Assembly (NCBI RefSeq): GCF_030684315.1
Contig: NC_081373.1
Span: forward strand, 48,932,066 to 48,996,065
From: Stegostoma tigrinum
Lineage: Eukaryota
DNA length: 64,000 nucleotides
Direction of reading: 5' to 3'
Positions 2,965 through 44,547 of the stretch are shown here, in pieces. Within the stretch, counting starts at the first letter, position 1, and every line of letters starts with the position of its first letter. Below the pieces are notes generated by a model, which saw only the letters and a list, made by a program, of their open reading frames with translations, did no database searches and had not been told where the DNA came from. The translations under genes were made by a program, and so were the position numbers.

Positions 2965-3055
2965 TTTCTGAAGAAGGATCCAGGCCCAAAATGTCAGCTC
3001 TCCTGCTCCTGTTTGTCCTGTTGTGTTCATCCAGCTCTACGCCTTCTTATCTGAG
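2965..3055 (+). mobile_element. PLE-derived short element, family 1, single arm, decayed HHR
   Basis: ttttCTGAAGAaggatccaggcccaaaatgtc agctctcctgctcc...gtgttcatccagctctac; both core CpGs are mutated. Confidence 0.75.
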
Positions 3056-4687
3056 AAGCTCAGTAGATCAGGTAATGTCTATCTTAAAGAATATGTGAGC
3101 TGACACATAAGCATTGAACACTCAAAGAAGGTTCAGCCAGTCATGGAAAAAGGATGTACACAGTAGTGATCATTGGTCTCTGTGCCTCCAGGGGGACATA
3201 GTCTTTTTCTTTTGTGGGGAGGCACTGTCCCCTCTGACCAGTCAGAACAGGATTGTCTCCATACCTAAGAGAAACAGAATCAGTGACGAGCTGCTCCATC
3301 AAAATTTTTTTTCTCTCATATGCTGATCCATCACAAATTCTTCTTTTCTCACACTTGCCGCTGATTAGGTTTATTAATGAGCCTATCACCTTCAAACATG
3401 AGGAATAGTTAGCCTACAATGGGAGGAGCCATTTGGAAAGTAAATGTCTCTGGTGAGTAAGTCACTAGTGTTACTGCCAGTCAAGTCCAAGCTCATTATG
3501 TATTTAAATAAAAATAGTTTGCCGAATCTATAAAATAGTTCAACCCCACTGAAATTATGACATTGGCATCTGGATGCCAAAGTATGCTAATGCTTTGTAG
3601 AGACTTCAAAAGACATTTACTCCAACTTATCTATGATTGAGGGTTTGCAGATAAACTGGGACGTTCTCCTTAGAGCTAAGAAGCCTGAGGGGACTTGGGA
3701 TGTGTTAAAAACATGGATAGATTAATGTTTGTTCATCAGGTAGTCCAGATTTAACTGATCTATCAGAAGTATGGATAATTGTTGACAATTCCACAGTGTT
3801 CAGAACCATTCTGACTGTAAGTACTTCACTGTAGGTGAAGTGTTTTTGGATAGTCTGTGATGCTGACAAGTCCATTTTTTATTATTATTATTATTCGTTC
3901 TACCAGATATGAGTCATATCCATTAAAGTCCACCAAAGTTGGCAGTTATATTGGCCACTTTAAAGGAGTTTCAAAAATTTCTGCCTGATTTAATTGAATG
4001 ACTCATTGTTTCCTTCACAGGAAAAGTTAGAATAGCAAATTGGCTGAAGTAACTAACACCATTAAGTGGTGCTTAATTTGAAGTAAGTTGTTCATGCATT
4101 AGCATTAGAAATGGGGTTTGGCTTTAAATTTGTGAAATGAATCACTGATATCATAAATACAGTGACATTTGTCCTGTCATAACTTTCCATTTACCTCCAC
4201 TGATCTGTGCTTACTCAGCACATAGTCAAACCTCAAACTCCACAGTGCAACTATCAGCTAGTCTATATGCTGACTTAGTAGATCTCAGCTGGCATGAAAG
4301 AAGTAGTTTTTCAGTTTGCCATGTCATTGAGAAGTGAAAGTCAAACATAAGCCATTACCACTGGAAATATCTGAAAGACAGACAATCTGAGGTCTGTAGT
4401 GCTACCTCTAAGGTACAAATGACAACTGATAACAATTGTCAAGACTTGCACATGAACGGTGATCATTTGACGAGGAAATGGACAATGGTTATTGGGCTGC
4501 TCATTGAACTGTAAGGACTACACCCCAGCAATAAGCCAATCAGACTTCAGTCAGTTAAAAATGTCTGTTTTGCACACACAATGGCACTTCACATTTAAGA
4601 GATTAAAGCAGCTTGAGATCAAAATATGAATACAATAACATTTGCTTCGTGCATTGCCGTTTTCCTCAACCAGTTGCCACACAAATA

Positions 4688-4910
4688 TGATTCAGAGATA
4701 GTGGGCACTGCCGATGCTGGAGAATCTGAGATAACAAGGTGCAGAGCTGGATGAACACAGCAGGCCAGGCAGCATCAGAGGAGCAGGAAGGCTGATGTTT
4801 CGGGTCTGGACCCTTCTTTCTGAAGAAGGGTCCAGACCCGAAACGTCAGATTTCCTGCTCCTCTTGATGCTGCTTGGCCTGCTGTGTTCATCCAGCTCTA
4901 CACGTTGTTA
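4688..4910. mobile_element. PLE-derived fold-back element, family 1, with 13-bp TSD
   Basis: Inverted arms of ~88 bp (4731-4818 / 4823-4911) with a 4-nt spacer. Flanks tgccacacaaata (4675-4687) and tgccacaaaaata (4911-4923). Confidence 0.9.
4817..4850 (+). ncRNA. Minimal type-I hammerhead ribozyme motif, intact core
   Basis: ttt CTGAAGA a GGGT-ccag-ACCC GAAA C GTC aga: complete core, stem II, ACGT palindromic stem III and GUC cleavage triplet. Stem I is only about 3 bp. Confidence 0.75.
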
Positions 4911-5775
4911 TGCCACAAAAATAATGTTTCTTTTAAATAGTAACTGGGCAATAACAATCTGTAAATGTTGAAACTTCTGTGTTGCTGGAATTCATGTAAA
5001 CATAATTATATTGGCACTGTTACAACCTTTAAATGATTCTAATACAAAATACAATTTTTTTATTACTTCACACAAAGTGACAAGAAGTCAGCAAATTGAG
5101 AAAGCAATTGTGTGAGCCAACTTTGGCCTGATCAGGAGTGAATGGCTGAATACTAGTTATATTTATTGTGTAGAAAACAGAAAACTGTTAAAGTACTGCC
5201 ATTAGTTTGGCAAATACAGACTGGACATGCCTAAATGACAAGCATAGACTCACATTCTACTAACAGAACAATATATAGGCCATTCAGCCAAACAGGTAGT
5301 GTTTCTGCTCCATCAAAGTGTTCTTATATCCTTTTTTTTAAACCTTTCACATACATCATGGCTTACCTACACTTATGCCAGCATGGTCCACATTATAAAC
5401 AATCTGAGGAAAACAACTAAACTGATTTACAAACCTGCATGCTGGAAATGTAAGTTCTGATCACAATTTATTAAAGGCTTTCTGTAATTTCAATTAAAAA
5501 ATTACTAGCATCATATAATTTAATCACTTCCCCAGAAAAATGTTACTGAAAGAGTACCTCTGTTACTCTGAGTCAATTTTATTCTCAAAAACTAGCAATT
5601 TTAGGTCACATGAATCACAACCTCCATCACGTTTGGAAGCCAGTTCACCACAAATATGACATCAAATTATCTGGGTCACAACTTCGGCAGTCCGATTTCT
5701 TCTCTTCCTTAAAAATTAGTCCAGATTACTTCCCTTTCATCCACTGACATTGTCAAAGAGCTGTTAACTATATGA

Positions 5776-5991
5776 GATAACAAGATGTAGAGCTGGAGGA
5801 ACACAGCAGGCCAAGCAGCATCAGAGGAGCGGGAAGGCTGACGTTTCGGGTCTAGGCCCTTTTCTTTTCTGAAGGAGTGTCGAGGCCCAAAACGTCAGCC
5901 TTCCTGCTCCTCTGATGTTGCTTGGCCTGCGTGTTCATCCAGTTCGACACCTTGTTATCTCAGTTTCGCCAGCATCTGCAGTTCCTACTAT
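5776..5991. mobile_element. PLE-derived fold-back element, family 1, with 15-bp TSD
   Basis: Inverted arms meet at ~5862-5870. Flanks ctgttaactatatga (5761-5775) and ctgttaactttatga (5992-6006). Confidence 0.9.
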
Positions 5992-6180
5992 CTGTTAACT
6001 TTATGACACTTGTTTTCAGAATAGTCTTTAATTTTCTTTAGTAGTCTGGAGTAAATGAGATCAAGCTTTGCAACATAATGAACCTGGAATACAGTTCACA
6101 GAAAGTCCTGCAACTTTTAAAACAGTGGCATGCTGTCATGATGTGACATTCCAGTATAAAGGTGCCTGCCTCACTTTCAG

Positions 6181-6278
6181 CCCTTTTCTGATGAAGGGTG
6201 TAGGCCCAAAACGTCAGCTTTTGTGCTCCTAAGATGCTGCTTGGCGTGCTGTGTTCATCCAGCCCCACACTTTGTTTT
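6181..6278 (+). mobile_element. PLE-derived single-arm element, family 1, with perfect 11-bp TSD
   Basis: ttttCTGATGAagggtgtaggcccaaaacgtc... flanked by ctcactttcag at 6170-6180 and 6279-6289. Confidence 0.85.
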
Positions 6279-7264
6279 CTCACTTTCAGTCTCGCTGTCC
6301 ATGTAATGGAGTTAGTGTAGACTTGCAATTATGCATATCTGATATACAGTAACATAAGTACACACAGAATCCAGACTGTGTGATATTTTGGACACAAAGT
6401 GTTATAAACAATCTTCAAGACACATGTCTGAAGAAGAATCTGACTCTCTGTGGCACATGTTATTTGGGCTAACCACAAATTGCATCATGTTGGAAATACA
6501 TGGGTACTGAAGCTCGTGATGGCAGCTAGTTAGTGGTAGTATGTAGACAGAAAAAAAAGTGATAGCGAGGCAGATTTATACCATAATGTCATAAATCATG
6601 ATCATATTATAGGATACAGATATCTTAATATCCTCCACCATTCAATGACATCAAAACGTATCTAACAAACCTCAACTTTGCTTTAACTTTACACCATAAC
6701 CCTCAATTCCCATACCATCAAAGATCGGTCTGTCTCAACCTTGAATATACTTGCTGACACAACCTCGACAACACTCGGTGGTAAAGAATATCACAGATTC
6801 ACAATCCACAGAAGAAATTGTTTCGCAACTGGGTCTAAAATATGCAACCTATTATTCTGAGTTTGTGCATTTTGGTCCTAGGCTGTCCCACAAAGAGAAA
6901 TACCTTTTCACATGTAATGCTCGAAGAATCGTGTATGTTTCAATCAGATGCCTCTCATTCTTCTAGAATCCAATGAATAGAGCCACAATCTATTCAAGGC
7001 GTGATTGGCCTGCTCTCGTTCTTATGCACCTATAATACTCAACATCTCCTCATAAGACAGTTCTCCATACCTAGTATCAGCCAAATGAATCTTCTCTGCT
7101 CTGCCTCCAATGCCAGTACATCACTCCTTAGATAAGAGGTATAAAACAGTTCACATATTACTGCTGTTGTCTGATTAGTGCCTCGGATAGTTTTAGCAAA
7201 ACTTCCCTACCTTTCATATTTCATTCTCTATGAAATAAAGGTGAACATTTCATTTGCCTTTCCC

Positions 7265-7578
7265 CTATGAGGGGCATGGACAGGGTAGATGGGAAGAAAC
7301 ATTCCCCTCTGGTGGAGGGATCAATGAACTGGAGCATAGAATTTAGACACAGGGCAAGAGGTTTAAAGGGGATGTGAGGATTTTGTTTTCATCCAGAGGA
7401 TGGTGGGCATATCTAAAACCCTCGTAACATGCAAGAAATATTTAGATGTATATTTGCAATGCCAAAGCATTCAAGGCTATGGGCCAAGTGCTAGAAAATG
7501 GGATTAGGATAGTTGTGATGGTTTTTGATCGGTATGGCCAAAGGGATTTTTCCTGTACTGTAGACCTCTATAACTCTA
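7265..7578 (+). mobile_element. CR1 LINE 3' tail nested in older CR1
   Basis: atgaggggcatggacagggtagat...ctgtactgtagacctctataactctat terminal repeat. Confidence 0.75.
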
Positions 7579-7624
7579 TCCGCCAAGCTTTTGCTCACTC
7601 ACTTAACCTGTCTACACGTGTTTC

Positions 7625-7951
7625 ATTTATTCATGGGATTGTGGGAATCACTAGCCAGCCAGTATTTATTGCCCATTCCTAATTGCCCAGACAGCAGTTT
7701 AAAGTCAGCCACATTGCAGTGGTTCTGGAGTCACATGTCGGCCAGACTGGCTGAGGATGGCAATTTCCTTCCCTAAAAGGTCTTTCGTGAACCAGATTTT
7801 GTTTCTCCCACCACCAAGTGGCAATGGTTTCACAGGCATCATTAGACCAATAACGCCACATTTTTATAGATTTAAGTACCACCTGCCATGACATGACTTG
7901 AACTGTAGTCTCCGGTTAACAAGCTGGATATAATGCCACTAGGCCATCACC
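7625..7951 (-). mobile_element. tRNA-derived SINE with LINE-derived 3' tail
   Basis: Minus-strand head TGGCCTAGTGG (A box) and GTTCAAGTC (B box). Tail gggcaataaatactggctggc...cccatgaataa is shared with the LINE ends at 56765 and 60010-60066. Confidence 0.7.
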
Positions 7952-10027
7952 TGTCTATCATCCATCTTTGCGCCATCCTCTCCATTTGCCTTCCCACCTA
8001 TTTTTGTGTCATCTGCAAACCTGGCTGTAGCACAGTCATGCTCCTCACCTAAGTGTTATATAGTAGTTAAATTATACCTGCAGTCTTGTTCCCTACGACA
8101 CATCACAGACTGCCATCCTTTCCCCAATTCTGTTTTCTGTTAATTAGCCAATCCTCTATTCGTGTTAATCTACTGCCTCCAACACCATGGGCTCTTATCT
8201 GATTTAGTTACCTAATGTGTGACATCTTATGACATGCCCTTCAAAGTCAAATCTATTCATCCACTGATTCCCCTTTACCTATCCTGCTCGAATCCACCTC
8301 AAGGAATTTTAGTAAATTTGTCAGCTATGGTTTCCCCTTCATTAAGCCATTCTTTCTCAGGTTGACATATAATGTATTTCTAAATGCTCTATCACATCCT
8401 TTGTAATAAGATTTGCTAACATTTTCCCAAGATCAGAAGTTAAGCTAACCGGCCTGCAATAACCTTTCTTTGTCTCCTTCTCTTTTTAAGAAAGGATGTT
8501 ACACTGACAGATTCGATTTTCTGGGACATTTTCAAAATGTAAAGATTCCTGAAAGATTACCATCTACAGCATTCATTTTCTTTGCAGCTGCTTCCTCTAA
8601 TATCCTAAGATGTATCCTGACAAATCCAATGGATCTACTGGTCTTTTCCCCTATTAATCTCCCTCACACTTTTCACCCAGTGTAGTAATTGCATTCATTT
8701 AATCTCCTCCTGCTGTCCTTTTAATGGTTAGTAAGTTTGGAATCATGTGGCTGACAGGGCTGGATGGTCTTGAAATGATGCCACAATACAATCTGCCTTA
8801 ATTCTTGTCACAACTGTTTCTGCAGAATCAATTTTAAGAACAACACTATCAATACCATTAGAAACTGAATATTTTCAAACATGCAGAACATTCAATTAAC
8901 ATGTTACCCATATCTTGTTCAAAAAACTATACTGTCCTGTTTCACACCTTTCTCATCTTCTATATTCAGGTTTCATTGAGACCCAAGGCTCATTTCAATA
9001 TTGCAAGGAGCAGAATATTGACCTGGAACTGCTCTGAAAATTTTATTCTTTCTTGAGGGTTGGTGAAGGTGCACAACATGGTGGTGGAGGAGAGGAGATC
9101 TAGTTTAATGACACGGGCATCAGTTGACCAAGTTGCTCTAACGTTAAACATTTTACATTCAACTAGAAATTCTTGGCAGCCTGCATATGCATGATAGATA
9201 TGCTATGCTAGACATCTATGATGCAATCAAGGAAGCTGATGCCAATGAATGGCGATTGTCGTGCTTTCGTTCCTTCAAGTTCGAGATGATCTGGGTGTGG
9301 ATTAGGATATCTACATTACTAATTTAACTAGATGCCTCCTGGTGAGGAAGAAATATGAAGTTTATTGCATGACACCAACTATTTGCAGATTAAATGAATA
9401 TAACCCACATTACTGGAGAGATTGTAAGGAGTATGCTAGCCCCAGGTCTTTCTTTACACTCTGACTAAGTCCCTGTGATGTAACGATGGCAGGCGGTGAT
9501 TGTGGCACTTATTCAAGCATTAACCAGTTCAGACACTCTTATGGGTTCAGTCTTCTACGCAGATGTGTATTCTTCAGATGTGGCTTGTCATTCAGTTCAT
9601 CACAATAAATAATGTATAATGAACCCCTCCTACAGGGATCAGGTGGTTTCTTCATACAGTCCTGTTTACACTCTGGACAATGTGCAATCTCCAATGATAC
9701 ACATCTCTGTGGGCAATCATCCCTTTTCTGTTTACATTTCACCTGTTGCCCAGTTCCTTGCATCATATAATGTTTATTGTAATGCACAGCTTACTGTGTG
9801 CCACAGGATTTCTCCTTATTACATCGCACTTTCTAATAAGTGGAGTAAGTATGGGGTTAACTACTTATGCAGGATAGGAAACCAAATCTCCAGGTTTCTT
9901 CCCAGTAAATTTGTCTCATACCACATCAGACCTACGATCCCAGAGCTACATACAAGACAGTGGCGTCCTACTTCAAGGGTGATGCAATTGATCTGACCTC
10001 ATGTTTAGCTTTCGCATTAGACTGGTT

Positions 10028-10057
10028 GGGGGGCGGGGGGGGGGGGGGGGTGGTGGG
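10028..10057 (+). repeat. Poly-G / G-rich tract
   Basis: G6-C-G16 followed by tggtggg. Confidence 0.9.
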
Positions 10058-10904: not shown

Positions 10905-11388
10905 AAAAAAGATTTACAAGGATGTTGCCAGGGTTGGAGGGTCTGAGCAAGAGGGAGAGGCTGAATACACTGAGGCTATCTTCCCTGGAGTATCAGAAGC
11001 TGAGGGGTGACCTTACAGATGTTTAAAAAATCATGAAGGACATGGATATGGTGAATAGTCAAGATCTTTTCCCCAGAGGAGGGGAGTCCAAAATGAGAGG
11101 GCATAGATTTAATTTGACAGGGAAAAGATTTAAAGGGGTCCTAAGGGGCAATCTTTTTTCACGCAGAGGGTAGAACATGTATGGAATGAAGTGCCAGAGG
11201 AAATGGTGGAGGCTGGTTCAATAAAAACACTTAAAAGGCATCTGGATGGGTATATGAATAGGATGGGTTTAGAGGGGCATAGGCCAAATGCTGGCAAATG
11301 GGACTAGATTCATTTAAGGCATTGGTCAGCATGGATGTTCTGGGCTGAAGGGTATGTTTCTTTGCTCTACATCTCTATTACTCTATAA
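10905..11388 (+). mobile_element. CR1 (HER1-like) LINE 3' end
   Basis: RFTRMLPGL...RLRGDL-like ORF2 C-terminus and ctctattactctat tail. Confidence 0.9.
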
Positions 11389-14001: not shown

Positions 14002-14129
14002 NNNNNNNNNNNNNNNNNNNNNNNNNNNNNNNNNNNNNNNNNNNNNNNNNNNNNNNNNNNNNNNNNNNNNNNNNNNNNNNNNNNNNNNNNNNNNNNNNNN
14101 NNNNNNNNNNNNNNNNNNNNNNNNNNNNN
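14002..14129. other. Assembly gap (128 N)
   Basis: Run of N. Confidence 1.
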
Positions 14130-16654: not shown

Positions 16655-18048
16655 TCGCAGGCAAACAGGGTAGTGAAGGCAGCATTTGGTATGATTGCCT
16701 TTATTGGTCAGTGCGTTGAGTACAGGAGTTTAGTTCATGTTGTAGCTGCACAGGAAATTAGGCTGCTTTTGGAATACGGTGTTCAATTCTAAACTCTACT
16801 TTAGAAAAGATGTTATGAAACTTGAAAGGGTGCAGAAAAGTTTTCCCAGGATGTTGCCAGGGTTGGAAGCTTTGAGCTATAGGGAGAGGCTGAATAAGCT
16901 GAGGCTATCTTTCTTTCCCTGAAGAGTTGGAGGCTGAGGGGTGACCTTAAGAGTTTTATAAAATCATCAGGGGAATGGATAGGGTGAATAGTCAAGGTCT
17001 TTTCCCCAGGGCAGGAGAATTCAGAACTAGAGGGCATAGCTTTAAGGTGAGAGGGGAAAGATTTAAAATGGACCTAAAGGGCAAACTTTTCTTGCAGAAG
17101 GTGGTGCATGTATGGATCAAACTGCCACAGGAGGTGGAGGAGGCCAGTACAAATACAATATTTAAAAGGCACCTGGATCGGTATATGACTAGGAATGGTT
17201 TACAGGGATATGGGCCAAATGCTGGCAAATGGAATTAGATTAATTTAAGATATCTGGTCAGCATGGATGAGTTGGACCAAAGATTTTAAGACATAGGAGC
17301 AGAAATTAGGCTATTCGGCCCAATGGGTCTGCTCTGCCATTCAATCCTGGCTGGTAAGTTTCTCAACCCCATTCTCCTGCTTTCTCCCCGGAACCCTTGA
17401 TCCCCATGACAATCAAGAACCGATCAACCTCTGTCTTAAATGCATTCAGTGGTCTGACCCCCACAACCTGTGTGGGAGTGAATTCCATAGATTCACCACT
17501 CTCTTTCAAAAGAAGTTTCTCCTTATCTCCATTCTAAAAGGTCTTCCCTTTACTCTAAGGTTGTGTCCTCAGGTCCTTGTCTCCCCTACCAATGGAAATA
17601 TCTTCCCAACATCTACTGTTTCCAGGTCATTCAGTAATCTGTAAGTTTCAAATAGATTCCCTCTCATGATCCCCTCTCATCCTTCTAAACTCCATCGAGT
17701 ATCGACCTAGAGTTCTCAAAAATTCCTCATATGTTAATTCCTGGGACCATTCTCGTGAAGCTCCTGTGAACCCACTCCAGGGCCAGTACATCCTTCCTCA
17801 GATATGGGGCCCAAAACTGTGCACAATACTCCAAATGTGGCCTGGCCAGAGCCTTTTAATGCCTCACAAGTACATCCCTGCTTTTATATTCTTCAAAATG
17901 ATTGCCAACATTGCATTTGCCTTTCCAACTAGTGACTCAGCCTGCAAGTTTACCTGGGAAGAATCCTAGAACCCCCAAGTTTCTTTGCATTTCAGACTTC
18001 TGAATTTTCGTCTGTTTCCGTGCTATACGTGTCCATGACTCTGAGTCT
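16655..18048 (+). mobile_element. CR1 LINE 3' end split by a second CR1
   Basis: ORF 16975-17238 MDRVNSQGLFPR..TRGHSFKV..HVW..LP. The tail is broken between gagttggaccaaag (~17282) and gtctgtttccgtgct (18010). Confidence 0.9.
17287..18008 (-). mobile_element. CR1 LINE 3' end (second subfamily), antisense nested insertion
   Basis: taagacataggagcagaaattagg tail followed by reverse CR1 ORF2 motifs (cccaaaactgtgcacaatactcc = EYCAQFW). Confidence 0.9.
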
Positions 18049-18580
18049 GTGGCTAAGAGGTCAGGATTTAGCAGACTCCATTGATAATTTGTTATTAACC
18101 TCTACAAATTAGTGAAAAGCTGAGGTTATGGAGTTTTGAAACCAGAATTAATATGTGGCTGAATTACTATTGGGATGACTGAGGAGTTGTTACAGTCCAA
18201 AGAAGATTTTAATTTGAAGAAAGCTAATTCAGATAATGGAAGCAGAAACCAGTAAGAATCAGAGAAAGTCCTGGGAGGAGAGGGACAGCCACACCACAGG
18301 ACAGCAGAATACATTCAGTTTATAAGATATACAAAAACTCTGAAGACACACATGGCTAGTTAACACTTGAGCTCATTGAACAATCTTTAATCAAAATTGT
18401 TCACTCACCAACACAACCTGGTGAATAAATCACAACAGATTTAGATTTAATGTCAGGTGATAAAACAGCACAAATTTAAGGGCAACGCTTCTTTTTTTCC
18501 AACTTTCAAGTCCGAATTATCAGTGCCAGTAATAACATCAAGACAGTGGCAATCTCCAAATAACATAACAAAAGGTTGTT

Positions 18581-18630
18581 TACACCTTGTTATGTCAGAT
18601 TCTCCAGCATCAGCAGTTCCTACTATCTCT
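18581..18630 (+). mobile_element. 50-bp terminal fragment of PLE family 1
   Basis: tacaccttgttatgtcagattctccagcatcagcagttcctactatctct. Possible TSD aaaaggt (18570-18576 / 18631-18637). Confidence 0.8.
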
Positions 18631-23691: not shown

Positions 23692-23890
23692 AGATAACAA
23701 AGTGAAGAGCTGGATGAACACAGCTGGCCAAGCAGCATCAGAGGAGCAGGAAGGCTGACGTTTTCTGAAGAAGGGTCTCTGCTCAAAACATCAGCCTTCC
23801 TGCTCCTCTGACGTTGCTTGGCCTGCTGTGTTCATCTAGCTCTACACCTTGTTATCTCAGATTCTCCAGCAGTGGCAGTTCCTGCTATCT
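23692..23890. mobile_element. PLE-derived fold-back element, family 1
   Basis: Inverted arms joined at ctgacgttt|tctgaagaagg (~23763). Degenerate TSD ttagttatcaatta / ttggttacaaatta. Confidence 0.85.
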
Positions 23891-24992
23891 TGGTTACAAA
23901 TTACATGGTTTCATCATGATTTCTGATTATTGCTCGTCCAAATGTAGTATGGGAAACATTCACTGACTGAGCTTTGCAAAAACATTCATATTCACATCCA
24001 GAAAATACTGTGGCAGCTATTATTTTTGAACAATTACTATGTGACATTTAACTTTGAAACTGCCTGTTGCAGCACCACCCACAGCTACATGTTGGCACTT
24101 TCAAATTGCAATACTTTTGATTCAGGTATTTCAAATGCATATCAAATATATAATGTTGCAAACCATCCACTTGTTTTGACAGATGGTTAATTTCTCACTT
24201 CTGGCTTCATGAAAATATAGTAACAAACTGGATTTTTGACGAACCAGCAATTCAGTAGTATATCCTTGTTAGGTGCTTGGTTTTCGATGAGGAATGTGAC
24301 AATTGTATTGTTTTGATGTGCAAGGGACATCAATGGACGTCTAGATCTGTGAATGATGTCGACACAGCTTGGTCTATTTGATCAATTTACATTTATCTTA
24401 CTGAGACATGTAGCAATTTTGCCCTTCAACATTTAAAAAAAAACTACATTTAATGGAAAGAAATAGCTTTCATTTCTGCCTGTAACTCCTACGACAGCTG
24501 GATACAATTCACAACACAATCTGATATAAACAAAACGTGGAATTCAGGTTCAGCCTTTAATTTTATGGGCAAAACATAAAATGCCCTCCAGTTAATGGTG
24601 CAAGATGAAGCATTGCCTATCATTAATACCACATTCTAACACTACCCTTACCATTTTTGATCAAGTTGTACGAGCTAGTTGAAGTCTGGGTCACCATAGG
24701 GTAGACTTGCTAACATCAGCCACCTTTTTACTGAGATCTTAAGGAACTATCTTATATAACGTGGTGGAGGAAAATCATTAGACGGTCGAAAAAGAAGGGG
24801 CTCTTAATCAAACAAGATGTAGCAATTATAGGCCAGTTACAATGGTAGGATAGACATTATTACCCAAAAAAAAGGTCTATCTTCTTCATTAGTTCTCCTT
24901 GCCAAGTCCAAATGGCATTTTACTGGGCACTTCTTCATTCAGTGGAGCTGGATGAACACAGCAGGCCAAGCAGCATCTCAGGAGCACAAAAG

Positions 24993-25024
24993 CTGACGTT
25001 TCGGGCCTAGACCCTTCATCAGAG
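24993..25024 (-). ncRNA. Minimal hammerhead ribozyme motif, intact core
   Basis: Reverse strand: ct CTGATGA a GGG-tctagg-CCC GAAA C GTC ag. Confidence 0.8.
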
Positions 25025-25344
25025 AGGGGGATGGGGAAAGGGAACTGGAATAAATAGGGAGAGAGGGGGACGTGGACCAAAGATGGAGAGAAAAGAAGAT
25101 AGTTAGAGAGGAGAGTATAGGTGAGGAGGTAGGGAGGGGATAGGTCAGTCCAGGGAAGACAGACAGGTCAAGTAAGCGGGATGAGGTGGTAGGTAGGAAA
25201 TGGAGGTGCGGCTTGAGGTGGGAGGAAGGGATGGGTGAGAGGAAGAACAGGTTTGGGAAGCAGAGACAGGCTGGGCTGGTTTTGGATGCAGTGAGGGGAG
25301 GGGTCGAGCTGGGCTGGTTTTGTGATGCAGTGGGGGGAGGGGAG

Positions 25345-25675
25345 ATTTTGAAGCTTGTGAAGTCCACATTGATACCATTGGGCTGCAGGGTTCCCAAGCG
25401 GAATATGAGTCGCTGTTCTTGCAACCTTCGGGTGGCATCATCGTGGCACTGCAGGAGGCCCATGATGGACATGACGTCTGAGGAATGGGAGGGGGGAGGT
25501 AAAATTGTTCACGACTGGGAGGTGCAGTTGTTTGTTGCGAACCGAGCGGAGGTGTTCTGCAAAGCGGTCCCCAAGCCTCCGCTTGGTTTCCCCAATGTAG
25601 AGGAAGCCACACCGGGTACAATGGATACAATATACCACATTGGCAGATGTGCAGGTGAACATCCGCTTGATATGG
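25345..25675 (-). pseudogene. GIY-YIG endonuclease domain of PLE (frameshifted)
   Basis: VVY...YIG motif with CxxC in ORFs 25438-25695 and 24978-25472. Confidence 0.9.
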
Positions 25676-25963
25676 AAAATCTCCCCTCCCCCCACTGCAT
25701 CACAAAACCAGCCCAGCTTGTCTCCGCTTCCCTAACCTGTTCTTCCTCTCACCCATCCCTTCCTCCCACCTCAAGCCGCACCTCCATTTCCTACCTACCA
25801 CCTCATCCCACTTCCTTGACCTGTCCATCTTCCCTGGACTGATCTATCCCATCCCTACCTCCCCACCTATACTCTCCTCTCTACCTATCTTCTTTTGTCT
25901 CCTTCTTCGGTCTGCCTCCCCCCCCCCTCCCTAGTTATTCCAGTTCCCTCTCCCCATCCCCCT

Positions 25964-25995
25964 CTCTGATGAAGGGTCTAGGCCCGAAACATCAG
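25964..25995 (+). ncRNA. Hammerhead motif in inverted arm, GTC>ATC change
   Basis: CTGATGAagggtctaggcccGAAACATC; stem III palindrome is broken by a CpG-type transition. Confidence 0.6.
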
Positions 25996-27499
25996 CTTTT
26001 GTGCTCCTGAGATGCTGCTTGACCGGCTGGGTTCATCCAGCCTCACACTTTGTTATCTTGGATTCTATAGCATCTGCAGTTCCCATTATCACTCCTTCAT
26101 GCAGTCCTCATTAATCCTTCAAACCAAAACAGTTTGTCCAACAATGTCCAAAACTGAAAGAGCTAAAAATTAAAATACCCTTTCTGACTTTAAACAGTGG
26201 CAGCCTCAATTGTTGTTGAGGCTTATGGTCACCATCCAAAAGCAAAGGGTTCAACCTCAAGAATCCTTGAATATGTTTCACTGCCTTCATTACCATAAAA
26301 TGTCAGAGTCAGCAGTACCTTTTATCCACCTTCCAGTCTCTGTTTCCACCACAAATTCCTTTTCATACAATCTAGCCAGTAATGGAAAGCCATTTACAAT
26401 CAATACTGCAATCAACTTCACTTATAAATTAGCTATCTGTATGCTATCTGAATACAGATGTGCTTGTGCTTGTCTTTACAATTAGTTAATTAGCAACAGG
26501 TACCTGTACAATTTATTCAGCCTTGTTAGTATCCTAAAGCCAAATCACTTGGAAGTGCATAAGATGAATCTTAATATGTCCTTTGTCAGAGAGATGATGT
26601 TAACATAATGGTCACTTCAGTAGAGATCACCTTCAAAGTATTGTTCTCAGTCTACTAATTAGCACATGCAGAATCCTTTGTCGTGAACAGCATTACTTGC
26701 TACAACTGCAATACAATCTAAATAATTGACGAGGGCCAGTTTATTTTGGTGATTTCCATTAAAATAATTACAGATCAAGGCCACTGAAAGCGCAGGCATT
26801 CTGTCAAACCCAGCTTGTGTTTGCTGCTTATAAAGATAACTTTTTCCTATGCCTATAGATAGATAGATTTAATGATTCACTTTCATGGCATTAAAAAAAT
26901 GGTAGCTGCAAAAAAGCTGCTGATGGGCAATTCGAAATAATCCATAGTTTCTACGGGTCAAATTGAGAGAAGAAGTGAATGGTCTGCTGCAATGAGACAA
27001 TGATTATCTTGCCATTTTATTTTTAAAAACCTTCAAAGCCTGTAGTTTAGCTACATTTACCAGAATAAAAGAAGTGCTGAAGTTATATGTCGTCAAGTAT
27101 TGTTCAGCAGTTAAGATCAGATTCTGGAATTAAATACACTGAGTTATCAACCTCAGTTACACAGATGATATTTGAGAATGTTGGCAAATGGCATCATTTT
27201 CCTGTATTGAAAGACGTTTCTTGTTGTTTACAAATAATTGTTTGGGCATGGAATATTCTTCCGTTTGGGCACTTGAAGTTAAAGTACTTATTTCATGGTT
27301 GTAAGAATAAGCCATCAGTAAAGGTAAGCATCTCCATTCACTTGTGCGTATTATGCTTGGGTCTTTAGTTTCCAGTCTCTCCTCCACAACTGAACAAAAT
27401 TATAACACAAAATGTTTTGCTTTGGCCATTCAATCTTCATAAATCCTTTTCTCTGATCTTTAATCCACACTGACACTGGCACTTCAAAAAATCTGCTCG

Positions 27500-28460: not shown

Positions 28461-28464
28461 TCTT

Positions 28465-33312: not shown

Positions 33313-33694
33313 AGCTTACTGAGGTGTATAAAATCGTGAGGAGCATAAAAAGGACGTATGCATATAGTCTTTTTCCCAGGGATGGGGAATTGAAAACTAG
33401 AGGGCATAGGTTTAAGGTGAGAGGGCAAAGATTAAAGAAGGACCTGCAGGACAACTTCTTCGTGCAGAGGGCGGTACATATATGGAATAGGCTGCTGGAC
33501 AAAGTGGTTGAGGCAGGCACATTAGCAACATTTAAAAAAATTTGGATAGGTACATGGGTGAGAAGGATTCAGAGGGGTATGGACCAAATGCAGGCAATTG
33601 GAAATAGCTGAGTGGGCACCACGGTCAACATGGACCAGTTTGGGCCAAAGGGCTCGTTTCCATGCTCTATTACTCTATGTCTAAATGACTCTAT
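33313..33694 (+). mobile_element. CR1 LINE 3' end
   Basis: LTEVYKIVR..LFPRDGELKTRGHRFKV..FFVQRAVHIWN. Confidence 0.9.
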
Positions 33695-34805: not shown

Positions 34806-35059
34806 GCAGCCTCCTTCTCTCCACCCCTATTGTCACATACCTCCAGCTCTCTCTCCCACTTTCTTGCAGCTTCCAGTTCTTTCCTGCCCTTTTGAAGTCT
34901 CCGAATCTCTCACAGCTTCCTTGAAGCTTTCCTCTCTATCACATCCACCTTGCAGAGGGAAGTTGAGGAAAATTTATTTTGTGCAGAGGGTGCTGGGAGT
35001 CTAGGCCTCTATGCCTGAAAGAGAGGTGGAGTCTCTCAGTATCCGTCAAAGGAAAAGCG

Positions 35060-36640: not shown

Positions 36641-37096
36641 TTACGTCATTTGTAGAATGGAATCCAAACAGTTTCTATTTGATCACCATTTCAAAAACAA
36701 AATCAGCGGGAGAAGTCTGTAAATTGATTTTGCTGACTGTCTCTCTTGGGAGCAGTAGCCAGTATCTCATTATTCCTGATTGACTGAGATGTATTCAGAA
36801 AGCCATTGATCTTGAAGGTTAAATTGCAGTTCTTTTATGAAGTATCTGCCATCTGGCAAGGCATCTCCAGCTGCCTGTTGCAGCCAATCATATGAAATCC
36901 TGAATCCCACTGACAGTAAACTAAATAATACTGAAATTTTCTAGTGGTAATAAGATGAAAATCTATATTGAAGCTACTCACCCTTCTGAAGGAGAAATCC
37001 CATGGAAATTATGTTGTGATTGAGGAGAAAACCTGGCTTGCCAAGAAAGTCACTTCCTGCTCTACTGTTGCCTTTGCAAGATTCTGGAGATGGACA

Positions 37097-37445
37097 ATGA
37101 GGGGCATGGATAGGGTGAAATAACCAAGGTCTTCACCCCAGGGTAGGGAAGTCCAAAGCTAGAGGCATAGGTATACGTTGAGAGGGTAAAGACATAAAAG
37201 GGGCCTAAGGGGCAACTTTTTCACATAGAAGGCGGTGCATGTATGGACTAAGTTACTATACAAAGTGGTGGAGGCGGGTACAACTACAACATTTAAAAGC
37301 ATCTAGATGAGTATATGAATAGGAATGTTTCAGAGTGATATGGGCCAAATGCTGGCAAATGGCAGTAGTTCACTTTGGGATATCATATTGGCATGGATGA
37401 GTTGGACCAAACAGTCTGTTTCCATGCTGTATGGCTATGACTCTA
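37097..37445 (+). mobile_element. CR1 LINE 3' end
   Basis: atgaggggcatggataggg...tctgtttccatgctgtatggctatgactct. Confidence 0.9.
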
Positions 37446-38216
37446 GGACAGATGAGGTTAGAGGTTTTTTTTGACTTATTATTATGATCTGACAATAGGT
37501 TCGGAAAATTCTGCTTTGAAAAGCTTTTAAATCAGATATGTTTTTATGCCCGACACATCTCAAAGCTGGAAAGCCACAGTGCCCTGTTCCAGGCCATTTA
37601 TATGGCCTAGTGACAAACTCAGTAATTGTGGAAGGTGCAGGAAACTCAAACACAGTCACAGGCTGCATTCTAGACTTGAGAGATTTGGGTTCCTCGCTGT
37701 CAATAAATACTTGCAGCCAGATGGTCCCAGTTTAAACTGAGTGCTCTTGGAGATTATTCTGAATTGTCGAAAATATGCTCACCTCTCTAACATCCCCAAG
37801 ACATCCCTGGTAACAGTCCAAAGTACTGTGTTTTTCTTGTACCATTTCATTGGGATATCTAGTTCACATTGGAACTTAAAATGAAACAGCTGGTCAAAAT
37901 TATAATATAATGGAATATGTAAATAAAAATGCTACTTTGATATCAGCAAAGCAAAAGAACACATCCGAGAGACAGCTGTAACTGAGCTTGAGTAAAATAT
38001 TAGCCGAGAGAGCTATATTAATTGACCTATATCTAACTGTGAATATAGTGTTACAGTATTGAAACGTGAAAGGAATGCTCCAGGCAGAACAGTGGCAGGG
38101 AGTAAAAAGAGTGCAGCTTTAAACAGTGTATGTGTGCACAGAGATATAATGCCTAGAGATATGAAAGAAGGTCCAGTGGGTTTGTAAAGCATGCTAACTG
38201 TGACGTTAGCATGTTA

Positions 38217-38322
38217 GATATTTTTAATTAACCCATTCAGACATGTTATGAGACTTCTCCACAGCAGGTGGGGACTGGAAACCCGGCCTTCTTGCTCAGT
38301 GGTGGGGACACTGCACATGTAT
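38217..38322 (-). mobile_element. Short tRNA-derived SINE (same family as 1966-2201)
   Basis: Homologous body; probable TSD gttagcatgtta (38205-38216) / gttagtatgtta (38323-38334). Confidence 0.7.
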
Positions 38323-38379
38323 GTTAGTATGTTATAATGGGTTTCATTAGTTGCAACTAAGGGCATCCTGGGGCATGTA

Positions 38380-39030
38380 AAATGAAGAAACATGACTGAA
38401 AAGTCAGGGTCATGTTAAAGACGCTACAAAGTGCCCTCACACTAAATGAAAAGTCCCAATTCTCTAGATTGACAATTTTGTCCCTAGGACACGTTATCCA
38501 AGAACATGACATTATGGTGAATCCAAGCATCAATTCTCAAGAGGTATCAGTGAATTTCTTGTAGATTACTCATTTCAAAAGAAGTCTCAAAATAATCTCT
38601 ACATTAAAGTAGGTTTCAGCCATAAGATTATGAAACACGACAAAAAAACCGATCATGTTCCAACAAGACACAAGTAATGGCAGATCCGCACCTGACGGCA
38701 GCAGTGGATTAAGCAGAAAAAGAGGAGCTTATTCGATTGTCATAACCAATGTTTCAGTAGTTACTGAAGGAAAATTCAAACAAATCTGTGTAGCTCAAAA
38801 ACCTGACAAATTGTTCAGAGGTCAAACAACTCTGTCTGCAACAGTGGTTGAAATATAGTCCAGCAGACCAAGTGTTGAAGAGGTACTATGAGCAGAAACA
38901 ACACTTGACAATATTGGAAGATTTACTGATGTACAAGGGTTACACCAATATTGATGCAAAGAGAAATCCTGTAAAAACTTCACAATATCCATTCAGGCAT
39001 TACAAAGTGCACAGCAAGAGCACAGAAATC
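38380..39030 (+). mobile_element. Gypsy/Ty3 pol relic (RT end and integrase zinc-binding region)
   Basis: LTLNEKSQFSRLTILSLGHVIQEHDIMVNP (~38436-38525), and YYEQKQHLTILEDLLMYKG..MQREIL*KLHNIHSGITKCTARAQ (~38885-39025). Confidence 0.75.
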
Positions 39031-39204
39031 GGAGAGGGGAACAGCAGCAATTAGTCATTTCAAAAGACCTCTGTTTGAGATTGCCACTACTCGGAAAATC
39101 TACTCCATGATTTTATATCTAAAATTTTAAATTGACACCATTTAATTGGTCAGCAGAAAATAAATTGTATATCCTCTTATTTTCATTTTATTTTTGGGTA
39201 GGTC

Positions 39205-39540
39205 AGCCGTTGGCACTGCTGCCTCACAGCGCCAGGAACCAGGGTTCAATTTCACCCTCAGGTAATTATGTGGAATTTATACATTCTCCCCATGTCTGCA
39301 TGGGTTTCCTCTGGGTGCTCCAGTTACTTCCTACAGTGCAAAGATATGCAGGTTAGGGGGAATTCCTCATGTTAAATTGCCCATAGTGTCCTGGGATTGC
39401 AGGCTAGGTGTACTGGCCATGGTCCATGCAACATTATGGGGATAGGGTGTGGGGCTGCATCTGAGTGGGATGTGTTTCAAAGAGCTGGTGCAGAATTGAT
39501 GGGTCAAGTGGCATCTTTCTGCTCTGCAGGGATTCTATTT
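39205..39540 (+). mobile_element. HE1-type V-SINE
   Basis: gcactgctgcctcacagcgccagg..gggttcaatt head, V-domain cattctccccatgtctgcatgggtttcctctgggtgctcc, CR1-like tail. Confidence 0.85.
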
Positions 39541-40496
39541 AAATATGATATCAAAGTGACAAAACTGCATTAGGTAAGTCATAAGCAATATATCATCTTT
39601 GATTATATTGCTCAATCCTGCTTCATCCAGCAGTGCTATTTTGCAGGTGTGGGTGCCAAGGTGTGGAACTACTAAAGTAGAGATATTTGGAAAAAGTTAG
39701 AAAACAATTTAACAGACAGTAAAAACTTTTTGAATGTTTACTCTAAAGTATTTTTTCTCCGCCTAATGCATTGCAGGTCCTCATGCATATTTGTCCTCCT
39801 GAAACAGGGGCAAGTTGTAAATGAATTGTAGCACAACCCACAATGGACTGTGGAAGATATAATAGAAAAAATCTGATCTTAATCAAACCAGTTACTTATA
39901 CTTAATGGCATGGTTTATTGTAAGGAAAAATGAAACTTGTTCTTACTCAAGTCATTTTTATTCGTAAATGCTTTGACATTGCTGTAGCACAGGAGCAGTG
40001 CAATATTCTATCGTACATCTTTCTTTTCTGAAAACTCATTTTTATTTTCAAACTAAAATGCATGAATCAGGTGTATGGTATGAAATAAATGGCAATTTTA
40101 ATACACTCAGTCTCTCAGCGACAGACCTGCACTTATGCATTCTGACAGTTTTTCTCCAAAAAGTGCACACTGTGGGAGTTGCTGGTAAAGAGTACTTGCA
40201 AGAAAATGCAATTATGGTGGTGAAGCTGTAGGAATATCAGCAAACATCACTGATTACGAACTCTCAGGGCTCTGGGCACAGAATACTGTGACCATCCCCA
40301 TCAACTCTTCAAAACACATGTATGTTGTCAAACACACTAAACTAAAAAGCTTGTAGAAAGTTTTAATTCTGCTTTGAAAATAAAACAAAACATGCAACTT
40401 ACTATTTTACTGAAACTAAGCAAATTTGTCACCATATGAATACTGCTGCATTTATTGAAATTTAATTTGACAAAAATGTCTTTGTCTCATGAGGCT

Positions 40497-40813
40497 TTAG
40501 AATAGATTAGATTCACCACAGTGTGGAAACAGGCCCTTTGGCCCAATAAATCCAAACCACCCCTTGGAGCATCCCACCGAGACCCATCCCCATAACCATC
40601 ACACCCCTAAATTGCCAATTTAGCAATTTAGCATGGTCGATCCACCTAGCCTGCACATCTTTTGGACTGTGGGAAGAAACCGGAGCACCCGGAGGAAACC
40701 CACGCAGACACGGGGAGAATGTGCAAACTCCACACAGACAGTTACCCGAGGCTGGAATCGAACCTGGGTCCCTGGTGCTGTAAGGCTGCAGTGCTAACCA
40801 CTGAGCCACCGTG
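40497..40813 (-). mobile_element. HE1-type V-SINE, well preserved
   Basis: A box TGGCTCAGTGG, B box GGTTCGATTCC, V-domain gtggagtttgcacattctccccgtgtctgcgtgggtttcctccgggtgctccggtttc, CR1/HER1-like tail. Confidence 0.92.
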
Positions 40814-40912
40814 AAAATCAGAGCACGTCATTGACCTCTCTTTCCATCTGAGCTGAAGAATAAGGGGACAACTGTGTCGTCATGTTGAAGCTGGATTTGG
40901 GGCAGTTAGTAC

Positions 40913-41052
40913 CCCTCTCCCTGCATGAAGGGTCTAGCCTGAAACGTCATCTTTTGTTCTCCTAAGATGCTGCTTGGCCTGCTGTGTTCATCCAGCTCCA
41001 CACCCTGTTATCTTGGATTCTCCAGCATCTGCAGTTCCCATTATCTCTGATC
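40913..41052 (+). mobile_element. PLE-derived single-arm element, family 1, decayed HHR
   Basis: ctgcatgaagggtctagcctGAAACGTC...cccattatctctga. Possible TSD cagttagtac / cagtgactac (40903-40912 / 41053-41062). Confidence 0.8.
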
Positions 41053-41139
41053 CAGTGACTACTTGAATATAAGCTGACAGGTGCCTGAATTCTGCCTGCC
41101 TCCCCAGTCTTTATCCTCAGTCGGGTGTCTCACTCCCAC

Positions 41140-42275
41140 ATTTACCGAGACACAGCAAAAAGTATTGTTGTTACACGCTGTCCAGATAAGTCATACCTTA
41201 CATCTGCACATCAGGGTAACAGAACAGAATGCCGAGTATAGTGTTTTGAAGAAGGTGCAGAGAAAGATCAACTCTGGTAACAGTGGGTAAAAGGCTGTTC
41301 TTAAATCTGTTCGTACATGTTCTCAAACTATTGTATCTTCTGGCCAATGGAAGAGGGTGGAAGAGTGTAATCGGGGAAGGGGAAAGGGTCTTTGATTATA
41401 TTGGTTGCTCTCACAAGCCAGCAGGAAGTGTAGACAGAGTCAACGGGTGAAAGGCTGGTTTTCGTGATGGACTGGGCTGTGTTTGCAACTCTGTAATTTA
41501 TTGTGGTCTTGGGCACAGTACTTGCCACACCACACTGTGACACATCTGGGCAGAATGCTTTCTACAGTGCATCTATAAAAGTTGGTAATTGCGGACATGA
41601 CAAATTTCCTCAGCTTTCTGAGAAAGGAGAGGCATTGGTGTGCTTTCTTGGCTGGAACATCGGTATGCATGGACCAGGACAAATCGTTGGTGACATTTAT
41701 TCCAAGTAATTTTATGGTCTTGACGTCCTCCACTTCGGCACCATTGATACAGACAGGGGTACATCCTTCACTCTGCTTTCAGCTCCTTCATTTTGCTGAA
41801 ATTGAGGGAGAGACTGTTGTCTTTACACCATGCCACTAAGCTGTCCATCTCCTCCCTGTACTCTGTCGTGTCATTGTTTGAGATCTGGACCCACTACAGT
41901 GGTGTCATCAGTAAATTTGCAAATGTAGTTAGAGCTGAATTTGGCCACATTGTCACGAGAGCAGAAGGAGAATAGTAAGGGGCTGAGTACGCAGACTTGT
42001 GGGGCACCGGTGTTGAAGATTATCGTGGAGGAGTTGGTGTTGCCTATCCTTACTGACTGTGATCTATGTGTCAGGAAGTCGAAGAACTGGTTGCAGAGGA
42101 AGGAGCAGAGTCCCAGATCTCTGAGTTTAGAGATGGGTTTGGCTGGAATTATGGTGTTGAAGGTGGGGCAAAAGTAAGTAAATATGAGTCTGATGTAAGT
42201 GCCGTTGTTATCCAGATGTTCTAGGAATGAGTGCATGGCTAAGGAAATGGTGTCTGCGGCGAACCTGATGTGATA
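41140..42275 (-). mobile_element. Rex1/Babar-like LINE, RT to 3' end
   Basis: LEHLD..GTYIRLIF..FNTIIP..GAPQVCVLSPLLFS..KFTDDTTVVG, then LGINVTNDLSW..KKAHQ..FLRKLRKF..NFYRCTVESIL. Confidence 0.88.
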
Positions 42276-42423
42276 GTAATCTGACAGTTTGAGTTCTAAT
42301 AGTCAAGCACGGATCCTTGGTCTCAGGCACAGGGGTCTATGAAGATTTATTGCTGAACTCTCCAACCCACAGAGGGGTCTGATTAGCTGCACAAATGGGG
42401 AAACAACTAGGATTCCCTTATGT

Positions 42424-42564
42424 CAGAGATAAAGGGAACTGCAGATGTTGGAGTATCCGAGATAACAGAGTGTGGAGCTGGATGAGCACAGCAGGCCAAG
42501 CAGCGTCTTAGGAGCACAAATGCTGCTTGGTCTGCTGTGTTCATCCAGCTCCACACTTTGTTAT
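42424..42564. mobile_element. PLE-derived fold-back element, family 1, HHR deleted, perfect 17-bp TSD
   Basis: ctaggattcccttatgt at 42407-42423 and 42565-42581. Arms join at ggagcacaaa|tgctgcttgg (~42520). Confidence 0.9.
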
Positions 42565-44547
42565 CTAGGATTCCCTTATGTGCCTTCTTTGGCAGGAATT
42601 TCTGGGCATGACCATGGTAAGCCTGTGTGTGAACACTGAATGGCATACAGGAAGTAAAATGTCAACTAAAAAACTCGGTATTTCGAAAAGATTGCAAAGG
42701 CCTCATGCAGAGATTCAAACAAAATTGAGAACGGATAAATTTATACTCACGTTTGCAAAATGTGTAGTTTTCTTAATGCATTTCAATTCTATCAATTATA
42801 ATGATTTAGCTTGTAGGTTACCAGGTAACCTGGAAAATAGCAGGGAAAACATTGCAGCAAAATAATACCTTTCGTTACCTGTTGTAAAGACAGATTGTGT
42901 ATATGACCGGTGTTACCATTTTATAGCACAATGTCCAATTACTGCACAGACACTTCCTTAAAGTCTAATTATTCTGATACAGAGCCTGAGATTGTTGAGG
43001 GCAATTATTTTTCTCTGTAGATTGGCAGATTTAAATTCCTCAGCTTTCACAAAAGGTCAGAAGGAACAATCAAGAAATAATTGGCTTCCTTTTACTTCTG
43101 TTATACTTCAAGTAAATTTGTAACAAAAACTTACAGGTGGTAATCTGAAAATCTGACAGAAACATCTTAGAATTTGCACAGCATTATTACAGTGAGTCAA
43201 AGGAAGGGAGTATTTTATCATGCTACATATTAAAACAAAAATTCCAAATCCTTTAAAGTGCAATATGAGACAATGACACATGGTTCCTTCACATTAAATA
43301 GTGCACTTGCCAATCAAATTTAAACAATTTAAATTAGGAAAAAAAAGCCAGGATTACTCATATTGTCTTAGATTTTGTTGAACTGCAAGGGAATTGGTGG
43401 GGGTTGAATTTCAATGATGGATTGGACATGAGTAACAAGCATCCATTCAACTGCAATGAGTTATGAGCGACGTTCGGGATCACGCCACTTCGTCGTGATT
43501 GGTTAGGTTTACTGGAGAGGTCGTCCAATATTTCTATTAAAATAATATGAATGGAAGTTGGCAATCAAAGTTTTAACCTATGGGTTATTCATTGCTTAGA
43601 CGCATTCACACAGAAGGGAGTTTGAATTCCCAATATGGAGGCAGTGACTCCATATCTTATCTTGTTCCATAAGGTGCATCTTGAGGCTTCAGCAAATGCT
43701 TACCCTCAGGCTGCACTCACATGTTTCCAGCATCATTCTATGAACTTGTCTTCCTACAGCTCTCGGTGGTGTCACTTTTGCTGACGTTTCCAAGAATATG
43801 CAAGTGGAGGAAGGATGATGCCAGGCTGAAGGGAAGAGTAAATACTCTTATGTCAACACTCATCATAGGTAAATTAAGAGAAATACCATAGAAATGTCTG
43901 TGAAAGTGCATAAAAGGTATATAAACTCACAAGAATTGTATAACCATTAACGACGCTGTTAAAGGCATTGCCAAAGTATTTAAAACTCCCGTCCTTTAAA
44001 CTTTGGACACAAAAACTGTCGGCAGTTTCGAAAAAAAAAGTATTGTTATTCAATCTGCGCATAAAGGTAAATTGGAAGGTTAATATTAAAGGATTTGCAC
44101 TGCATGATTGATTTCACAACCTATCGATATGACTGTGGAATGCCAATCAGCTCTCAGTTTGATTCAGAGCTCGAAGTGCTAATAAAGTCTTTGAATAGAA
44201 CATGAATACAAATGCTTGTATATAGGGGATCAAGTACTTGAAAGAAGTAAAATCTTACAAATGTTTCGGATAATCAACGTGTAACTTTTTAAAAAAGTAA
44301 TGAATACATCAACAGAATTTTATTTCATTTCATCATAGCATGTATCTGGAGGTCTGCCTGTGCTAAACACTGGATGATTGGCATGGAGAGTATTAAAGCA
44401 AAGGTAGATCAGTGAGCATGCTTGGCTTAACTGAGCTTGCATCAAATTGGCATGGAGCTATAAAAGGCTCATGGGATGAGGTGCATGAGGCCATGAAAAC
44501 CAGTGGCAACAATCAGCATGGAACGGCATAGGTGTATATGGTAAGGA

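Follow-up and report, generated by a model that had tools for sequence, protein, structure and literature searches.

Within a 64,000-nucleotide stretch of Stegostoma tigrinum DNA (hereafter the window), nine loci carry copies of a short repeat unit that holds a minimal hammerhead ribozyme core and that also lies at the end of a fragmentary Penelope-like element (PLE) in the same window. Alignment and BLASTN bear out the original prediction, made from the sequence alone, that all nine loci share one unit of ~130 nt, but they resolve the loci into 14 arms (2304 bases, 3.6% of the window) and give the unit two 3' ends, one at 95 nt and the other at ~130 nt, the second being reached through a 33-38-nt tail. 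From its 5' side the unit reads as a few T's, CTGA(A/T)GA, the minimal hammerhead core and the first 3' end at ~95 nt. The main arms match it with BLASTN E values of 1e-12 to 1e-40 and the arm at 18581 with 8e-15; two copies, those at 42424 and 18581, do not reach its full length. Pattern scans for the unit in metagenome, viral and genome contig collections returned no match.

As had been proposed, the arms fall into two subfamilies, CTGAAGA and CTGATGA. In a tree of 12 of the 14 arms, the two shortest being left out, a single branch with support of 98/98 separates them, 13 alignment columns are diagnostic, and identity is 87% and 89% within the subfamilies and 81% between them. Among 7 arms, a small number, the tree is star-like with no inner structure. 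Five of the nine loci (4688, 5776, 23692, 24942 and 42424) are head-to-head inverted pairs, a palindromic structure that the original prediction had overlooked, and in all five both arms come from one subfamily. Three of the pairs are CTGAAGA insertions. At 4688..4910, a minus-strand left arm (4688-4819) that has the tail and lacks the first CTG overlaps by 2 nt a plus-strand right arm (4817-4910) with a complete start and no tail. At 5776..5991, the left arm (minus strand) is without the tail and the right arm, which runs on the plus strand from 5865, has both a complete start and the tail. At 23692..23892, an untailed minus-strand left arm (23692-23764) overlaps by 4 nt a plus-strand right arm (23761-23892) with a complete start and the tail. 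The pair at 42424..42564 is CTGATGA-type and has no hammerhead core, with the tail on its left arm (minus) and none on its right arm (plus). The single arms all lie on the plus strand: a CTGAAGA arm at 2964..3052 that starts at tttt-CTGA, has no tail and is decayed, with a 9-nt deletion and the core GAAA gone; a CTGATGA arm at 6183..6278 (locus 6181) that starts at tttt-CTGA and lacks the tail; a tailed 3' fragment with CTGAAGA-type diagnostics at 18581..18630, beside a possible 16-nt inverted stub at 18563-18579; and a tailed CTGATGA-type arm at 40913..41050 that starts ~9 nt before a mutated core.

The remaining pair, at 24942-26093, has the same head-to-head structure as the short palindromes, with longer arms. 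Its minus-strand arm (24942..25692) is 5'-truncated and contains a frameshifted GIY-YIG remnant (25692-25296), a C/T-rich 3' untranslated region (UTR) and a CTGATGA unit with an intact core at 25022 and no tail; the inverted, shorter plus-strand arm (25676..26093) contains the end of the endonuclease frame, the 3' UTR and a CTGATGA unit with the tail. A GIY-YIG PLE had earlier been read as ending in the unit at 24944, and a CTGATGA unit does follow the endonuclease, but what survives of the PLE is a frameshifted stretch confined to the endonuclease, together with a second arm. The endonuclease remnant, identified by homology, is 88-89% identical to PLE proteins predicted for Rhincodon typus and S. 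tigrinum, and its homologues carry PF01541; its frame lies outside the seven long open reading frames (ORFs) sent to Pfam, which yielded reverse transcriptase (RT) and GIY-YIG only in a second PLE, plus an RT scrap. The window copy begins at residue 337 of one of these proteins (P0001), just past the linker, and a CX2-5CxxC motif, the linker of Neptune and Nematis, is visible in P0001. The parent is likely a fragment of a Neptune-type PLE. The left arm also has a short internal duplication (25284-25349) that is missing from the right arm.

Target-site duplications (TSDs) of 13-17 bp flank five of the nine loci: 4675-4687/4911-4923 (12/13), 5761-5775/5992-6006 (14/15), 6170-6182/6279-6291 around locus 6181 (12/13, the first 11 exact), 42407-42423/42565-42581 (17/17) and, around the whole PLE insertion, 24928-24943/26090-26105 (14/16). 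All of them score at least 10, a value that 5 of 495 random position pairs reached. No TSD above chance was found at 2965, 18581, 23692 and 40913 (scores 5-7), and the clear 11-17-bp TSDs of the original prediction hold, at 13-17 bp, for the first five loci but not for these four. In all five palindromes one arm bears the tail and the other does not (p ~0.03 if arms were independent), and the arms overlap at the junctions by 1-4 nt. At 4688 and 24942, the arm that is shorter at its 5' end bears the tail. Because neither arm contains the other, simple fold-back copying is excluded at these two loci, and we rejected a simple fold-back origin of the palindromes. Published PLE insertions show an inverted 5'-truncated copy, a 30-40-bp tail often at one end and 8-10-bp TSDs (PMC8557442; PMC3846280), and the inverted and tailed anatomy also appears in PMC8969392. 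The anatomy in the window is that of a textbook PLE insertion: an inverted 5'-truncated arm, a one-sided tail of 30-40 bp and a variable TSD are all present, and it is this match to ordinary PLE terminal repeats that the original prediction had named as one of the outcomes contrary to its proposal. Of six features of endonuclease-positive (EN+) PLEs that were tested, five were found, namely GIY-YIG 5' of the unit, a hammerhead, an inverted arm, a tail and a TSD.

The three palindromes of 200-220 bp look like miniature inverted-repeat transposable elements (MITEs), and 4688-4911 folds as a single hairpin (z = -21). A palindromic cut-and-paste MITE is nevertheless extremely improbable, and we rejected it: the TSDs are long and vary from 13 to 17 bp instead of being short and fixed, and the tail is confined to one side. 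In addition, the arms are unequal and their junctions vary, TSDs also flank single arms, and a GIY-YIG PLE ends in this unit.

Evidence on copy ends beyond the window comes from contigs of four sequencing runs (X1, X11, X14 and X18) aligned to 23740-25400, a segment made up of one CTGAAGA arm, a unique spacer and a CTGATGA arm with upstream PLE sequence. The kind of runs X14 and X18 is unrecorded and they are not taken as evidence of expression. No positions where many molecules begin or end were reported for the segment, where the evidence consists of loose contig ends; their counts are from the best 24 of ~1800 rows and are lower bounds, and X1 is undercounted. At the unit start, 25023, at least 869 X1 contigs exit into unrelated sequence (X11 at least 153, X14 at least 21), with agreement of 0.37-0.42 (0.37 in X1). 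At least 1031 and 1157 X1 contigs stop at the no-tail end, 23857/8, and at least 1490 at the tail end, 23890 (X11 at least 400, X14 at least 19). All four listed pieces that carry the 5' end of the CTGAAGA arm begin at 23760-23764, and loose ends at 23762 are seen in at least 10 X18 contigs. The 5' end is thus genuinely fixed genome-wide. A smooth spread of 5' ends into an upstream PLE ORF, for which the original prediction had suggested looking, is not seen in these contigs with the subfamilies pooled; the ends pile up at one position, 25023. Summed depth in X1 is ~20 over the spacer, 10-34 million over the units and 2-10 million over the upstream PLE sequence. This depth, which is not itself a copy number, together with 14 arms per 64 kb points to a copy number of the order of 10^5-10^6. 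The first upstream bin has 18% of the depth of the adjacent unit bin in X1 and 5% in X11, such that a minority of copies run on into the PLE.

The copies could also have arisen through ordinary 5' truncation of a 3'-primed PLE with a stall hotspot at the hammerhead or in the C/T-rich 3' UTR. PLE insertions are highly 5'-truncated (PMC8557442, PMC8969392), the 18% upstream depth in X1 fits, the copy at 40913 opens 9 nt further upstream, within sequence resembling the UTR, and those at 42424 and 18581 fall short of unit length. We nonetheless consider this unlikely, given that the ends pile at one position, that the solo copy at 6181 opens with tttt where the parent 3' UTR at 24942 has ctct, and that single arms fold no better than shuffled sequences (z -0.2 to 1.4, 7 arms) and show no stable fold.

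Several further observations concern the ends and joints. Both 3' ends of the unit lie at a similar (T)ATCT(C) motif (23850-23858, 23884-23892 and other arms). The continuation of the tail reads CTGAAA in three runs and resembles the unit start, so the tail may be a partial duplication. Tail-to-tail joints, opposite to the head-to-head arrangement in the window, link 23857-23860 to 24942 in 49 X1 contigs (four rows) and may reflect units inserted into copies already present, or palindromes arranged in arrays. CTGATGA-type depth is much higher in organism A than in organism B. One X11 contig of organism B matches the flank of the PLE insertion up to 24938, and the last 82 of its 284 letters do not enter the PLE, which makes it a possible empty site; the PLE insertion may therefore postdate the split of A and B.

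A hammerhead core shared by the loci was central to the original prediction. A minimal core does belong to the PLE repeat, as in EN+ PLEs, but most cores are decayed, with 2 intact and 1 near-intact among the 8 arms that span it. The first intact core, at 4820..4847 (+), consists of CTGAAGA, an extra A, stem II and GAAACGTC, following the motif of PMC4209133, with a predicted cut after 4847, within the unit; the second is the one at 25022, and a third, at 25966, passes the motif scan with an altered stem III. The scan gave 3 matches, compared with a mean of 0.21 and a maximum of 3 in shuffles. By inspection, helix I is just 2-3 bp, and stem III is of the self-complementary ACGU type. An Rfam search found no hammerhead family match and returned only nine matches to miRNA hairpins, all sub-threshold; a miRNA precursor was rejected. 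The predicted cut falls ~30 nt inside the unit, whose fixed ends coincide instead with stem I and the two tail sites.

These features bear on whether the family is a true non-LTR (long terminal repeat) retrozyme, in which tandem units would self-cleave as hammerhead dimers, circularise and be reverse-transcribed into monomers. Among the rows listed, 12 and 17 X1 contigs link the no-tail end to the unit start and 12 more loop back; such head-to-tail joints amount to ~1.3% of no-tail ends (29 versus 2188 free, X1), roughly 60-fold over a rough chance estimate. The ACGU-type stem III also fits a retrozyme, and tandem retrozymes derived from pseudo-LTRs (pLTRs) have been reported in one chondrichthyan (Li et al. 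2026, 10.64898/2026.07.22.740005). However, tandem insertion is also ordinary PLE behaviour, seen in 30% of D. virilis copies (PMC2377424), and none of the nine loci is tandem. The ends at stem I and the tail are neither the cut site nor permuted points, helix I is only 2-3 bp, Rfam gave no hammerhead match, and 2 of 8 cores are intact. We regard the retrozyme as very unlikely. Animal non-LTR retrozymes (PMC7229834; 10.64898/2026.07.22.740005) resemble the family in being non-coding, pLTR-related and dispersed as monomers, with a type I hammerhead and long TSDs, and the rare dimers here would count as tandem in the sense of Li, Clavereau and Pollet 2026 if both cores were intact. They differ in that the copies here are not tandem as a rule, have a minimal rather than a canonical hammerhead (whose helix I is about 6 bp), do not have ends set by cleavage, and pair head-to-head instead of head-to-tail. 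A retrozyme-like ribozyme element, as originally proposed, is not supported by these comparisons, the units being almost never tandem, not bounded by cleavage and mostly decayed in their core; the other part of the proposal, a discrete, high-copy, non-coding and PLE-mobilised unit whose 5' end is non-random and does not reflect smooth random truncation, is supported.

On balance, and with a little more than even confidence, we favour the reading that the nine loci are solo or head-to-head pLTRs of a likely Neptune-type PLE, produced by internally primed RT that ran off at the RNA 5' end. The units were likely pasted in by the PLE's own copying enzyme and not excised by the hammerhead motif. 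Transcription of PLEs begins within the upstream pLTR, driven by an internal promoter (PMC2377424), and the RNA 5' end would here be a transcription start lying 1-4 nt ahead of the hammerhead core, some of the T's perhaps being non-templated. The PLE endonuclease would nick both target strands with a 13-17-nt stagger, and each nick would prime one cDNA, at the tail or the no-tail site, as occurs in vitro for the anole PLE. The protein of that element is a predicted dimer that cuts and extends both strands (Frangieh 2024, PMC11167929), and its internal priming uses two sites that delimit the tail; it also tolerates a dead hammerhead (PMC11167929). From either of two fixed sites in the front repeat, RT would run off after ~95 or ~130 nt. 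Two cDNAs joined by microhomology would give a palindrome and one cDNA a single arm; priming in the downstream repeat would give the less frequent longer copies, which extend into the 3' UTR and endonuclease. The hammerhead would be a passenger. Since the tail is on one arm and the arms are non-nested at two loci, we argue for two cDNAs from two target strands. The anole PLE needs RNA downstream of the priming sites (PMC11167929), which inserted units would lack, and most of them would be dead ends. A fixed-start solo copy also exists in the subfamily with a coding parent, CTGATGA (6181), that parent being seen in the window and in the predicted protein P0002. In addition, the ratio of endonuclease-end to unit depth comes out alike in organism A (0.21) and organism B (0.25), although the shares falling on the CTGAAGA arm are 0.23 and 0.59.

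Whether the CTGAAGA subfamily has a coding parent at all was approached through gene models. With a translated CTGAAGA arm as protein query, 12 distinct predicted proteins were found, of which a repeat protein (P0039, 38% identity) was dropped; of the remaining 11, the 9 that were looked up are all whale-shark gene models. Five of the 11 start the unit at F-L-K (tttCTGAAG translated) in five different contexts, and three have an antisense arm just ahead of the sense arm. These models are a biased sample in which DNA is back-inferred from protein letters, and models can splice. When the CTGATGA arm served as a control query, 14 candidates came up without a single one scoring, so the counts from the 11 models have no matched control. 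A fixed tttCTGAAGA start had been singled out in the original prediction. All four window CTGAAGA arms that keep their 5' part do begin there, 3-4 nt ahead of CTGA (tttt-CTGA), but the start is not CTGAAGA-specific, because the CTGATGA copy at 6181 opens in the same way. Nor does a fixed 5' end decide the question of the CTGAAGA parent, because an ordinary PLE mRNA, if primed internally within its 5' repeat, would give the same unit.

A number of points weigh against the pLTR reading. An S/P-rich translation of the PLE 3' UTR precedes the CTGATGA unit in the window and in P0002, and it precedes the CTGAAGA unit in none of the 11 gene models. Together with 0 of 4 in the window, upstream PLE sequence accompanies 0 of 15 CTGAAGA sense copies (taking 22% as the expectation gives p ~0.02, taking 10% gives ~0.2), a result that lends weak support to the earlier claim for CTGAAGA. 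The contrast between subfamilies within the window, 0 of 8 versus 2 of 6 arms, is not significant (Fisher p = 0.16). The pile at 25023 covers both subfamilies together, further Neptune families may add to the depth of the endonuclease bins, and neither a full-length parent of either subfamily nor the transcription start was observed. Twin priming rests on five loci, and Arkhipova 2013 (PMC3846280) proposed self-priming on an antisense template instead. Finally, short solo copies are absent from the window for the repeat of its other, unrelated PLE of Poseidon type; solo-unit abundance is therefore not generic.

A rival reading makes the CTGAAGA unit a self-propagating, SINE-like (short interspersed element-like) non-autonomous element whose short masters would be transcribed from the pLTR promoter and copied in trans by a related Neptune PLE through the same kind of priming. 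In its full form this would be a Penelope-dependent SINE, a twin-primed polymerase II unit of 95/130 nt with no coding parent and hundreds of thousands of carpet-shark copies. The 0 of 15 count, the five F-L-K openings in five contexts, the 13 diagnostic changes and a very high abundance in two species all speak for it, as do reports of non-autonomous PLE derivatives (PMC8557442; PMC6685494) and the finding that pLTRs suffice for mobilisation in trans (PMC3846280). However, the fixed start recurs in the coding subfamily (6181), anole PLE RNA must extend past priming sites beyond which the units have no sequence, the tree among 7 arms is star-like, and the ratio of endonuclease to unit depth is no lower in organism B, despite its larger CTGAAGA share. 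We therefore hold the SINE as a tentative alternative, doubtful in its general form and in its full form alike.

Returning to the pLTR reading, the closest published relatives are the pLTRs of EN+ Neptune PLEs (PMC8557442, PMC3846280, PMC8969392), which share the GIY-YIG parent, the inverted truncated arm, the 30-40-bp tail, the variable TSD and the minimal hammerhead. Unlike these, the copies here are mostly repeat-only, with one fixed 5' end and an abundance of the order of 10^5-10^6, and have TSDs of 13-17 rather than 8-10 bp. Solo pLTRs of Adineta were ascribed to deletion or recombination, which differs from our reading. The dispersed minimal hammerheads that Cervera and de la Pena 2014 (PMC4209133) describe for metazoan PLEs have the same extra base between A9 and G10.1, G10.1-C11.1 pair and palindromic stem III, and are mostly single with some opposite-strand pairs. 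Their helix I is usually 4-5 bp (2 in D. virilis) compared with 2-3 here, and the accessible text names no shark. Thousands of such dispersed hammerheads were already known by 2014 as truncated PLEs (PMC4209133), and dispersed PLE hammerhead repeats were tied to retrozymes in 2026 (10.64898/2026.07.22.740005). PAc, the Poseidon PLE of Anolis (PMC11167929), likewise has two priming sites bounding a tail, extends both strands and can dispense with the hammerhead for insertion; it belongs to a different clade, and the main text of PMC11167929 describes no solo-repeat family. A Penelope expansion in whale-shark introns has also been reported (10.1101/443036). Our literature search, whose coverage left out most subscription papers, Repbase, Dfam and the supplements of the 2026 preprint, found no account of the shark unit family. 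The kind of repeat is already known, and the shark unit family is a further member of it.

How the inverted and tailed structures of PLEs form has been called undefined (PMC8557442). A family of 10^5-10^6 copies makes two-strand cDNA priming testable from one assembly, and the fixed 5' end with one-sided tails supplies abundant natural data on how PLEs insert. Palindromic copies, if transcribed, would fold into RNA hairpins of ~90 bp, and were the SINE reading true, many copies would be ready-made 200-nt RNA hairpins. Palindromic repeats and lizard Penelope are major substrates of A-to-I editing (PMC5625713).

Other mobile elements in the window include the second PLE, at 51624-53527 (-), which is unrelated and 5'-truncated, with RT (PF00078, E 3e-12) and a weak GIY-YIG. 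It is labelled Poseidon-like from its dissimilarity to the Neptune remnant. Its inverted arm measures 133 nt (92%), and near 51665-51700 it carries a separate hammerhead-like motif, now decayed. A highly decayed GIY-YIG-like remnant at 50352-50639 (-), 32-39% identical to shark PLE proteins, represents a third PLE family. Copies at 10907-11383, 16796-17495, 33320-33685, 37081-37445 and 47805-48320 share a LINE-like 3' end, which we take to be CR1-type. RT scraps lie at 41871-42302, and a run of 128 N occupies 14002-14129.

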